DNA of 64,000 nucleotides from positions 314 through 64,313 of the forward strand of contig CAZKPX010000007.1 in assembly GCA_964554805.1 (NCBI GenBank). The letters run 5' to 3'. Shown in pieces: positions 55,572 through 61,162 of this stretch (positions are counted from its first letter, which is position 1; the number at the start of each line of letters is the position of its first letter). Below the pieces are notes generated by a model. It ran no database searches. It saw nothing but the letters and a program-made list of their open reading frames with translations, and had not been told where the DNA came from. The position numbers and the translations under genes are program-made. This DNA is from an uncultured Candidatus Saccharibacteria bacterium (GTDB lineage: Bacteria > Patescibacteriota > CAZHWT01).

Positions 55572-56216
55572 ATGGCATTGATTGCCACCATCCCTACAGT
55601 CAAAGAGGCTGTTTTAACCAAGCAGGGCTTGCGTAGTTTGCGTGATGAAATTCTCTACCGCAATGCCAAGAATCCGCTTAAGGCCAATGACAACGAGCGG
55701 CTGCAGTCGCTTGGGCTAGGGCAGCTTGTCATGGACTGGTTGGTCTCCGAAGGCGGTCGGACTGCGTTTGATGATATTAAAAACTGCGGTCCGGACGCCA
55801 TTCTGCAGGCCTTTGACGCCGGTCTTAAACAGGTTGAATTGGTCCAGCTAACACTGGCCTATGTCGCTTCGGTCGATGATGCTGTACGGTACCATAAATG
55901 GTTTAATCAAGTCTTAAATCGCCCGGTTATGCTTGATTTGCGTCTCAACCCTCAGCTTTTGGCAGGCGTCATGTTTGTTTATCAAAATCATCTCTATGAT
56001 TACAGTCTGCGTCGCCAAATGCCCCAACTCCAACAAGCTCTATTAGAAAACTACAAACAATTCACGGCTAGCCAATCTACGCCTGCAACAAGCGACGAGT
56101 CACAAGCGACGAGTCAATTAACTCAAGATGTAGACAAAAATACAGAAGTCGGTACTAATACTCGTCGCCAGTCGCCAGTCGCCAGTACTCTTCATGACGG
56201 AGCAATTCCGTCATGA
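55572..56216 (+). CDS. atpH: F-type ATP synthase subunit delta (OSCP-like) with repeat-derived C-terminal extension
   Basis: Position between b and alpha; ATG 4 nt after the atpF stop; ATGA overlap with atpA. The C-terminus (...ATSDESQATSQ...RRQSPVAS...) is encoded by a GCGACGRG-type element. Confidence 0.6.
   Translation: MALIATIPTVKEAVLTKQGLRSLRDEILYRNAKNPLKANDNERLQSLGLGQLVMDWLVSEGGRTAFDDIKNCGPDAILQAFDAGLKQVELVQLTLAYVASVDDAVRYHKWFNQVLNRPVMLDLRLNPQLLAGVMFVYQNHLYDYSLRRQMPQLQQALLENYKQFTASQSTPATSDESQATSQLTQDVDKNTEVGTNTRRQSPVASTLHDGAIPS
56088..56188. repeat. GCGACGRG-type inverted-repeat element, copy A (in the atpH 3' coding region)
   Basis: Left end GCGACGAGTCACAAGCGACGAGTC (56092-56115); right end CTCGTCGCCAGTCGCCAGTCGCCAG (56161-56185), the reverse complement of GCGACGRG arrays. 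In frame. Confidence 0.6.
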
Positions 56217-57883
56217 AGAAGACGTACCAAGAGTACATTAACGAAGGTCACGAATCCGGCGCCATTATGTCTGCTCAGGGTTTTACAGCCATCGCTCAAG
56301 GCTTGCCTTCGATTGCAGTCAACGAACTGGTCCAAACCGAATCAGGTGCCCAAGCCATCGTCAACTCCCTGTATGAAGATACAGTTGAACTACTAATGAT
56401 CGACAGAGGCAGTGCCTCAAAAGGTGAGCCACTAGTAGCCATCAATCAGATTTTATCAGTACCATGCGGACCGTCATTAAAAGGTCGCATGATTAGCCCA
56501 TTAGGCGAACCATTGGACGGCAAAGAAGAGTTGACCGATGTCCAAATGATGCCCTTAGAGAATGAAGCCCCGCCAATTTATAAACGATCTAAGATTAGAG
56601 ACCAGCTTATTACCGGCATAATGCTATCAGACCTATTGGTTCCACTGGGACGCGGCCAACGTGAGGTTGTAATGGGAGACGCTAAGAGTGGTAAGACCAG
56701 TTTCTTACTGCCAATCCTGATGCATGCCAAAGAAGAAAATATGGTCGGTGTCTATGTTGGCATTGGTAAAACTCGCTCCGAATTGCGTCGTATCGCCACT
56801 CAATTAATCGACAACAATCCTGGCAGCGATATTGTGGTGGTGGGTACCTCATCATCTGATTCAGTCACCATGCAATACTTAGCTCCTTATGCCGGCATGA
56901 CTATGGCTGAATATTTCCGCGATCAGGGGCAGGACGTTTTCTTAGTTCTAGATGATCTGGGCAATCATGCCAAAGCTTACCGTGAAATCTCACTATTAAA
57001 TAATCGACTGCCTGGTCGAGACTCCTATCCTGGAGATATTTTCTATGCCCACTCTCGATTATTGGAGCGAGGTGGGTGCGTGGTCGGTCCTCAAGGTCAA
57101 CCAAACACCATCACCCTTATGCCAATCATCGAAACTATTGGCGGTGATGTGACTGGCTATGTCCAAACCAACCTCATTTCAATGTCGGATGGACACACCC
57201 TTTTTGATCTCGAAACCTTCTACAAAGGTATTCGCCCAGCTATCAATATTGGTTTGTCAGTCTCTCGTGTTGGTAAGCAGACTCAAACCAAGCTCCAAAA
57301 GTTCGTAGCTAGCGAATTGCGGGTCATGATAGCTCAGTATCAGGATGCCAAAAACTTCGTTCGTTTCGGTGCCGAACTAACTGACAAAACCAAACTGCTC
57401 TTCTTACGAGGCACCATTTTCGACGAACTGATCAAGCAGGACCTCAGCACTCATCTCAAGCGTCATGAGCAGTTACTGGTCATGTTGGCTCTCCTGGATG
57501 GCTTCTATGACCCATTTCCTCTCAAGGAAATACTGCAGGTCCGCAAAAAACTGCTGGAAATCTTTGCTCAGTCTCAATATGAGCAACTGCGCCAAGCCTT
57601 ATTAGACAGTGCTGATCCAGAAGTCCGTCAGCCTCTTTTGGATGCCATTTACAAGGAGGTCGCTCAGGCCTACGGGCTAAAAGATGGCACCGCTTCACCA
57701 GTAGCAGCCTCCACTCAAGCCCAGCTCGGCCGCGGCCAGGACGCCACTACGCCAGAACTAGAAGGTGGAACTAGTACTAGTGCCGACACCATGCAACCAC
57801 AATCACCTTCTAGTTCTAGTTCTAGTTCTAGTCCTAGTCCTAGTCCTAGTCCTAGTTCTAGTTCTGAAGGAGGTACTAAATAA
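56213..57883 (+). CDS. atpA: F-type ATP synthase subunit alpha with Ser/Pro-rich C-terminal extension
   Basis: P-loop GDAKSGKT, alpha-type core (PLGRGQREVVMGD, PGRDSYPGDIFYAHSRLLERG). An extra 50-aa or so low-complexity C-terminal tail is encoded partly by a hexanucleotide repeat. Confidence 0.85.
   Translation: MKKTYQEYINEGHESGAIMSAQGFTAIAQGLPSIAVNELVQTESGAQAIVNSLYEDTVELLMIDRGSASKGEPLVAINQILSVPCGPSLKGRMISPLGEPLDGKEELTDVQMMPLENEAPPIYKRSKIRDQLITGIMLSDLLVPLGRGQREVVMGDAKSGKTSFLLPILMHAKEENMVGVYVGIGKTRSELRRIATQLIDNNPGSDIVVVGTSSSDSVTMQYLAPYAGMTMAEYFRDQGQDVFLVLDDLGNHAKAYREISLLNNRLPGRDSYPGDIFYAHSRLLERGGCVVGPQGQPNTITLMPIIETIGGDVTGYVQTNLISMSDGHTLFDLETFYKGIRPAINIGLSVSRVGKQTQTKLQKFVASELRVMIAQYQDAKNFVRFGAELTDKTKLLFLRGTIFDELIKQDLSTHLKRHEQLLVMLALLDGFYDPFPLKEILQVRKKLLEIFAQSQYEQLRQALLDSADPEVRQPLLDAIYKEVAQAYGLKDGTASPVAASTQAQLGRGQDATTPELEGGTSTSADTMQPQSPSSSSSSSSPSPSPSPSSSSEGGTK
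57809..57862. repeat. Hexanucleotide microsatellite (YCTAGT)x9 inside the atpA C-terminal extension
   Basis: TCTAGT x4, CCTAGT x4, TCTAGT x1 read directly; encodes SSSSSSSSPSPSPSPSSSS. Confidence 0.9.
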
Positions 57884-61092: not shown

Positions 61093-61162
61093 TGCTTCAA
61101 GAGCACAGATCCTCGTCGCCCGTCGCCCGTCGCTCTGATTCTCCAAAGGAGAATAAGTAATG
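61076..61162. repeat. 19-bp direct duplication (CAAAGGAGAATAAGTAATG) flanking a 49-bp insert with a partial GCGACGRG-type end, at the atpD/atpC junction
   Basis: Copies at 61076-61094 and 61144-61162. The insert contains CCTCGTCGCCCGTCGCCCGTCGC and creates a 22-codon mini-ORF ([22 protein letters not shown]) whose stop overlaps the atpC ATG. Confidence 0.7.

Follow-up and report, generated by a model that had tools for sequence, protein, structure and literature searches.

An uncultured Candidatus Saccharibacteria bacterium carries, inside its ATP synthase genes, pairs of short tandem arrays of a 7-nt repeat that face each other as inverted arms around a spacer. The DNA analyzed here, hereafter the window, is a stretch of 64,000 nt from contig CAZKPX010000007.1 (assembly GCA_964554805.1). 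Positions are those of the window, features are on the plus strand unless stated otherwise, and all copy counts refer to this 64-kb part of the genome. The atp genes are atpF (54713-55567), atpH (55539-56216; delta/OSCP subunit, 225 aa), atpA (56213-57883), atpG (57883-58794), atpD (58798-61092; beta subunit, 764 aa) and atpC (61160-61420; epsilon subunit, 86 aa, with orthologous genes that carry PF02823). A 22-codon open reading frame (ORF; 61094-61159) separates atpD from atpC. The atpH stop overlaps the atpA start as ATGA, the next junction reads TAATG, and a 3-nt gap precedes atpD; the repeat modules are found inside the ORFs instead.

Four full modules, designated A to D, each consist of two arrays, left and right, with a spacer of 45-85 nt between them. 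The arms can be described as short tandem 7-nt arrays of the "long simple sequence repeat" type, which many bacteria have; the unit of the 5' arm is GCGACGA and that of the 3' arm GTCGCC(C/A), which complements it imperfectly. The GCGAC-type arm always precedes the GTCGC-type arm. Copy A (56085-56186) lies in the tail of atpH. Its left arm (56085-56116) is (ACAAGCGACGAGTC)x2, with a period of 14, and is followed by a spacer of ~45 nt and a right arm (56160-56186) that reads ACTC + (GTCGCCA)x3.3. Copy B (58850-58970) lies in the N-terminal extension of atpD, with its inverted repeat at 58861-58943 (CTTGCAACGAGCGACGAGC ... GTCGCCCGTCGCCCGTCGCAAG). Copies C (60434-60572, inverted repeat 60445-60550) and D (60734-60882, inverted repeat 60748-60866) both lie in the C-terminal tail of atpD. 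A degenerate copy E (60995-61060) combines the left array (CAAGCGA)x4.6 with a decayed right arm (CATCGCCCGTTGCC). Copy F (61112-61133) is a solo right arm outside atpD, within the 22-codon ORF; F excepted, the GCGACGA/GTCGCCM arrays lie within ORFs. Copy A is not an assembly artifact, a possibility rejected because two independent Logan assemblies cover it identically (SRR16798008 matches window positions 54496-57851, and SRR16798009 matches 54496-57845).

The repeats are strongly over-represented. GCGACGRG occurs 20 times, against 1.79 +/- 1.21 expected, and none of 100 shuffled sequences has as many. With as many as 3 mismatches allowed, GCGACGAGCGACGAG has 24 matches, where 0.86 would be expected. 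All but two of these matches lie within the atp operon (56085-61133) or within an array at 26009-26040; the outliers are at 1739-1753 and at 25548-25562, the latter a single unit at chance level. A preliminary description of this DNA had reported the repeats and the four full modules, and both stand. It had taken the unit to be an octamer. The unit is in fact a heptamer: unit starts are spaced 7 nt apart, and the period-8 "octamers" overlap by one base.

The array at 26009-26040, (CCCGTCG)x4.6, lies within an ORF (24057-27512) for a UvrD/PcrA-type helicase-nuclease. It encodes NPSPVARRPSP, an 11-aa in-frame insertion that, by comparison with the nearest ortholog (P0131), falls in a variable acidic loop. 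The partial copy previously noted in this gene is a genuine 11-residue insertion, but one made of a right-arm array without a left arm. Directly after the array, at 26040-26066, is a perfect 9-bp hairpin, GAAGGCGAA-gga-TTCGCCTTC, which encodes EGEGFAFA; the array and hairpin segment together give a fold z of -3.46.

Where do the modules fall in the proteins? In AtpH, the Pfam OSCP match ends at residue 168 of 225, and the last ~50 residues form a tail that orthologs lack. In two related contigs, L001 and L002, the AtpH orthologs stop at, or soon after, the point that corresponds to ...NYKQF in the window protein, and copy A exactly fills the 50-aa tail that has no counterpart in them. In AtpD, the Pfam domains cover residues 76-477 and an alignment of nine homologs places the conserved core at about residues 76-520, flanked by low-complexity extensions of 75 residues at the N terminus and ~240 at the C terminus. 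Copy B sits between the atpG stop and the conserved AtpD core, and copies E and F are on either side of the atpD stop. The best named homologs of AtpD come from Microgenomates-type candidate-phyla-radiation bacteria, with about 54% identity, and six closer homologs share 64-84% identity over the aligned local region. All six of these closest orthologs have long, unalignable low-complexity C-terminal tails, and the motif encoded by the window modules is entirely missing from the AtpD proteins of close relatives.

The modules add low-complexity Pro/Ala/Thr/Ser segments to the AtpH and AtpD products. The copies in atpH and atpD are in frame, as had been pointed out, but this is nearly automatic because (GCGACGA)n, (GTCGCCC)n and (GTCGCCA)n are free of stop codons in all six frames. 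In addition, because 7 and 3 are coprime, each array encodes a single cyclic peptide that is identical in every frame: ATSDERR for the first, and VARRPSP or VASRQSP for the other two. The conserved ATSDE and (R/H)QSPVAS pieces of the encoded segments are therefore arrays that have been read through. The peptide SPVARR recurs in the helicase loop and in the 22-codon ORF.

Several features of the locus point to local duplication of DNA segments. Copies B and C, which had been described as nearly identical, indeed share 90.9% identity over 121 aligned nt with one 18-nt indel, and C and D share 87% identity; copy A has the arms in common with B-D but not the spacer. The homology of B and C (58850-58970 and 60434-60572) begins 11 nt before the inverted repeat and extends about 22-27 nt past it, so the copied unit is a DNA segment rather than an element bounded by terminal inverted repeats. 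Two gene junctions carry tandem duplications of their own. The end of atpG and start of atpD (58777-58824) contain AGTTTATGGATGAAAT twice, with a period of 15 in 3.1 copies. The end of atpD and start of atpC (61043-61167) contain a duplicated 68-nt unit with 75% identity over 57 nt; the unit comprises a right arm, an AAGGAG Shine-Dalgarno sequence, TAA and ATG. This duplication created the 22-codon ORF, which lies within the second copy of the unit, as does F. The partial copy noted in the atpD-atpC spacer is real and lies in a small ORF made by duplication. Within arrays, unit variants are clustered, as in copy C, where two CAGTCAC units are followed by two CAGTCGC units; such clustering is a signature of slippage.

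The inverted arms are real, but they pair at only about 5/7 positions per unit, through the GCGAC/GTCGC cores, and the inverted repeat is not the boundary of the homologous unit. The arms do fold, with sense-strand RNA z values for copies A-D of -3.2 (-30.9 kcal/mol for A), -3.6, -2.2 and -1.8, which are modest. Copy E folds no better than its shuffles (z -0.07). The antisense strand of copy B (58855-58955, minus) forms an almost continuous 22-bp helix of -55.9 kcal/mol, with a z of -6.65 compared with -3.6 for the sense strand, because A.C mismatches on the sense strand become G.U pairs. There is no Rfam match at the gathering score anywhere in the window, and a search of 54400-61500 at E<=1 gives one match at chance level. 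Scans for terminators and promoters found nothing at the modules; specifically, no intrinsic terminator, taken as a GC-rich stem and a T run, occurs at any module, and the counts are at chance level.

Hairpins with unrelated sequences occupy the same junctions in relatives from this candidate-phyla-radiation-like clade, mainly in non-coding spacers of 90-250 nt. In L152 (GCA_964536215.1), one family, AAGAGTCCAAATGCCAA / TTGGCATTTGGACTCTT, is present in the atpH-atpA, atpG-atpD and atpD-atpC spacers and after atpC; elsewhere on the 15.8-kb contig it occurs only at position 65, upstream of the operon. In L001 and L159, arrays of CCAAGAAT-type octamers and their complements straddle the atpA stop, and hairpins of this type are also found in the atpG-atpD and atpD-atpC spacers and after atpC. 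In L154, ATCAATA/TATTGAT arms span the atpD stop. Two of the atp spacers of L157, a Curtissbacteria contig, hold one more repeat (CTTGCGGTCCTCG...CTGCGGGCCTAA). Wherever contigs are long enough to check, no family strays from its own atp operon and the immediate surroundings. The spacer hairpins of relatives fold well (z -4.0, -3.5, -6.5 and -4.9), and on the sense strand a purine-rich 5' arm is in every case followed by a pyrimidine-rich 3' arm. Junction hairpins were not found in L002, in L151 or in the compact outgroup L158. Separately, L152 has arrays of the CCAAGRAT octamer, the family of L001 and L159, in frame inside atpG (5233-5263), which is a second case of junction-type repeats within a coding region.

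The window itself contains another hairpin at a gene end, from a different sequence family, in the atpA tail (57754-57865). This segment has arms AGAACTAGAAGGTG / CACCTTCTAGTTCT, followed by (TTCTAG)x9.7, and encodes ...SSSSSSSSPSPSPSPSSSS. A perfect 14-bp hairpin (57754-57767 / 57804-57817) precedes the (TTCTAG)x9.7 array at 57808-57865, which specifies a Ser/Pro run. Both Logan contigs terminate inside this array.

The modules also belong to a wider class of heptamer arrays. The window has nine exact period-7 arrays against 0.1 expected, and none of period 8; three of the heptamers, TCCTAAA, TGAGTTA and CAAAAGG, are unrelated in sequence. Among the other heptamer families, those examined lie between genes or across the end of a gene, and relatives have many arrays of period 7 and period 8. 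A metagenome scan with the left arm found (GCRACRA)n arrays in 27 contigs of 39-63% GC; these are seemingly intergenic where the flanks can be read, and several are accompanied, at a distance of 50-100 nt, by an inverted (TYGTYGC)n array. A scan of viral contigs gave one contig, a duplicate of a metagenome match, and the listed matches of a genome-contig scan with GTCGCCMGTCGCCMGTCGC as query come from high-GC Actinomycetota, Acidobacteriota and similar bacteria. In bacteria, heptanucleotide repeats are reported to be the most over-represented long simple sequence repeats; they are mostly intergenic, sometimes form inverted pairs, and have no known function (PMC4692102, PMC4679880).

How could such repeats have come to lie within genes for essential proteins? 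The reading that we favor, with moderate confidence, is that they are slippage-prone stem-loop repeats of cistron junctions that were spread locally, through both duplication and gene conversion, and absorbed into reading frames. It builds on the observed architecture, the local duplications, the positional match to the spacer hairpins of relatives, and the stop-free arms. First, stem-loops of 7-8-nt tandem units would be a clade-wide feature of atp cistron junctions, with sequences that vary from genome to genome. Second, in the genome of the window the spacers would have collapsed to 0-3 nt, and because the window heptamer is stop-free in every frame, translation would run on through the stem-loops, giving delta a C-terminal tail and beta a tail at both its N and C termini. 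Third, local spread would have occurred by tandem duplication of junction segments, together with gene conversion or ectopic recombination within the operon, and slippage would homogenize the arrays unit by unit. In the beta tail, the start of D lies 303 nt from that of C and the start of E about 250 nt from that of D, a spacing that serial tandem duplication followed by decay would give. Fourth, the stem-loops may tune the stability of segments of the polycistronic atp mRNA, or translational coupling along it, with the encoded peptides presumably tolerated as disordered tails.

Some observations weigh against the favored reading. The hairpins of the window are weak, with 5/7 positions paired per unit and sense-strand z values of -1.8 to -3.6. 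Copies C and D are away from the junctions, at a depth of 250-550 nt in the beta tail, and two members of the clade, L002 and L151, are without junction hairpins. The helicase array is 30 kb away and has the same heptamer, and local duplication does not explain it. A role as a stabilizer is limited by the fact that ribosomes unwind structure inside a translated ORF. Lastly, dispersal was judged on 64 kb, and copies may be scattered elsewhere in the genome.

A less probable, though quite possible, alternative is that the modules are a neutral by-product: polymerase slippage and template switching in unconstrained, low-complexity tails would generate and homogenize both the heptamer arrays and their inverted copies, with no function for the RNA or the protein. 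All seven AtpD proteins of the clade have long, unalignable tails, and the window, like the relatives, has more heptamer arrays, of many different sequences, than expected; the heptamer excess in bacteria has been ascribed to polymerase slippage (PMC4692102, PMC4679880). The hairpins are imperfect, and copy E has already decayed to a z of -0.07. Neutral origin is harder to reconcile with the relatives, where the same junctions bear hairpins of unrelated sequence and strong fold in at least five genomes and L152 keeps one family in four spacers. Nor does it account for the constant polarity, with the purine-rich arm 5' in relatives and the GCGAC-type arm 5' in the window.

The favored reading, absorption of junction stem-loops, could be extended beyond this genome, though the extension is speculative and we hold it rather doubtful. 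Bacteria of the candidate-phyla-radiation type may have genome-specific stem-loops of 7-8-nt units at every atp cistron junction, confined to the operon (where contigs allow checking) and evolving in concert within each genome. A trans-acting protein that binds single strands, for example one with a cold-shock domain, might recognize these stem-loops, and they could double as tail-coding sequence, so that a single element would have both an RNA-structure and a peptide role. A cold-shock-domain protein has been reported to bind one heptamer per protein (PMC4679880).

Selection could instead act on the protein. According to this explanation, which we consider unlikely, ATSDE...QAT...(R/H)QSPVAS is a selected linear motif or linker of delta and beta that binds a common partner or is modified, and the inverted repeat in the DNA is incidental. 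Two subunits of the same complex share the motif, which beta has three times over; the AtpA tail has a similar ASPVAAS from different codons. Synonymous and non-synonymous changes between B and C are about equal in number. However, both conserved peptide pieces are exact translations of heptamer arrays, SPVARR is found as well in the helicase loop and the 22-codon ORF, the motif is absent from close relatives, and the equivalent DNA structure in those relatives is in non-coding spacers.

The preliminary description proposed a transposable element akin to a miniature inverted-repeat transposable element (MITE), inserted in frame into genes. In this scheme, which would also cover elements like the Rickettsia palindromic elements (RPEs), a non-autonomous element with terminal inverted repeats made of tandem units would transpose into genes in frame. 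Inverted arms around a 45-85-nt spacer in at least four copies fit it, as does the 11-residue insertion that an array of the same heptamer forms in a loop of the helicase, at a distance of 30 kb, and in-frame palindromic insertions in Rickettsia offer a precedent (PMC10969869). Nevertheless, the modules do not look like transposons, and descent from a mobile element of this kind is improbable. The flanks of A-D, read directly, have no direct repeat of shared length that could be a target-site duplication; AGTCCT on both sides of D is part of array-like sequence and is missing from A-C. The homology runs beyond the inverted repeat, and copy A shares only its arms with B-D. All full copies are within one 5-kb operon of the 64-kb window, with one solo, one-armed array in the helicase gene. 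In the window, the genes with in-frame palindromic repeats are those of atp subunits, to which the helicase gene adds its one-armed array. Clean empty sites, as would be expected for RPEs, were not found in orthologs, since the six closest AtpD proteins have unalignable tails; only the helicase array resembles a discrete insertion. A HMMER profile of four module peptides, run against 1.84 billion representative proteins, matched only the AtpH of the window (E 8.5e-18) and RCC1-repeat noise, with no other protein family that has the module; AtpD is hidden by 50% clustering in that set, so insertions in conserved proteins could be missed. No cognate insertion sequence turned up in the window, where no transposase search was made. 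What stands of the earlier suggestion, which spoke of a mobile or recombination-prone repeat tolerated as a disordered linker, is the recombination- and slippage-prone character and a tolerated disordered segment; mobile insertion is unsupported. Finally, a phase-variable contingency locus is rejected, as the arrays are in essential genes and a change of one unit would cause a frameshift.

The exact sequence family is undescribed, in line with the earlier remark that it was not recognized, but repeats of its kinds are known (PMC4692102, PMC4679880, PMC10969869). The closest parallel is with tandem heptanucleotide repeats, long simple sequence repeats that include the cyanobacterial short tandemly repeated repetitive sequences, GGGAATC of Xanthomonas, GGGGA(C/T)T of Nostoc and TAACTGA of Beggiatoaceae. 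These likewise have a 7-nt unit in 2-5 tandem copies; as in the window, several unrelated heptamer families occur in one genome and period 7 in particular is over-represented. Some are arranged as inverted pairs (PMC4692102), and some are near gene starts or ends (PMC4679880). In contrast to the described cases, which are overwhelmingly intergenic, the arrays of the window are translated inside essential genes, with arms paired left and right in every full copy and confined to one operon. In-frame palindromic repeats are known from Rickettsia, where RPEs of ~100-150 nt lie in frame in housekeeping ORFs, lengthening the protein by a peptide segment while leaving it intact (PMC10969869). RPEs differ in being dispersed (44 insertions, in unrelated R. 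conorii genes), with a conserved peptide per family and no tandem short units, whereas the copies in the window are local, lie at protein termini or cistron junctions, and have arms that are heptamer arrays. MITEs (Correia, Nezha, ERIC) are small and of non-coding size, have inverted ends, and include some in-frame fusions with host ORFs (PMC10969869); unlike them, the modules are without target-site duplications, have terminal inverted repeats that do not bound the homologous unit, and are not dispersed over the 64 kb covered. Repetitive extragenic palindromic (REP) sequences and bacterial interspersed mosaic elements (BIMEs; also REPINs) are alike in having genome-specific sequences and in forming long hairpins from inverted pairs between the genes of an operon. 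A plausible role of REP hairpins, as in the malE-malF case, is to act as mRNA stem-loops that stabilize upstream segments. REPs are palindromic units of 20-40 nt, extragenic, present in hundreds genome-wide and associated with REP-associated tyrosine transposases (RAYTs), whereas the window arms are direct heptamer arrays, few, local and intragenic; RAYTs were not searched for.

What would the modules mean for atp operons? The most interesting aspect is a set of junction stem-loops that have position, rather than sequence, in common across a clade and that have been absorbed into essential proteins. If the stem-loops have a function, they would offer very small genomes a simple and as yet undescribed means of making ATP synthase subunits in their unequal stoichiometry from a single transcript, and the window would clearly illustrate how structured repeats outside genes turn into protein sequence. 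If they have no function, the locus would still show, as a clean natural case, how slippage of heptamers together with local duplication adds about 300 residues to essential proteins. There is also a practical implication: in proteins from uncultivated bacteria, tails and "insertions" need not be domains but can be repeats that have been read through.

Other repeats and genes lie around the operon. As seen in the window, the operon begins at atpF, and the upstream region (53756-54712) has no atpB (a) or atpE (c). It contains a weak LytR_C-like ORF, a terminator-like hairpin (54431-54464) and one copy of a dispersed repeat. This repeat is an intergenic element of ~110-130 nt with three copies (14490-14610, 43000-43130 and 54490-54600). 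Its outer parts are inverted arms, GCGGATATCGAGACACGG ... CCGTGTCTCTATATTCGC, and its conserved core is GGATATCGTAAAA ... CCATATCC.ATATCC; within the third copy, at 54496, both Logan contigs break off. The three-copy element has no Rfam match, and it fits the idea of a dispersed REP/MITE-like element or a small RNA better than the atp modules do. A family of 33-nt units with ATCCTAA heptamer arrays and CCGCC...GGCGG hairpins occurs at 15645-15690, straddling the 3' end of ORF 14898-15665, and at 27909-27990, where it is intergenic. Downstream of atpC are two genes for 23S_rRNA_IVP four-helix-bundle proteins (PF05635), in ORFs 63094-63453 (E 1e-17) and 61499-61870 (E 1e-38). The first is flanked by a near-perfect inverted repeat of ~45 nt with heptamer arrays (CAAAAGG / TTTGCCC; 62970-63018 / 63461-63512), and the second by weaker inverted A/G-rich and C/T-rich arrays (61430-61460 / 61886-61950). 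Both genes look like small cassettes bounded by inverted repeats.

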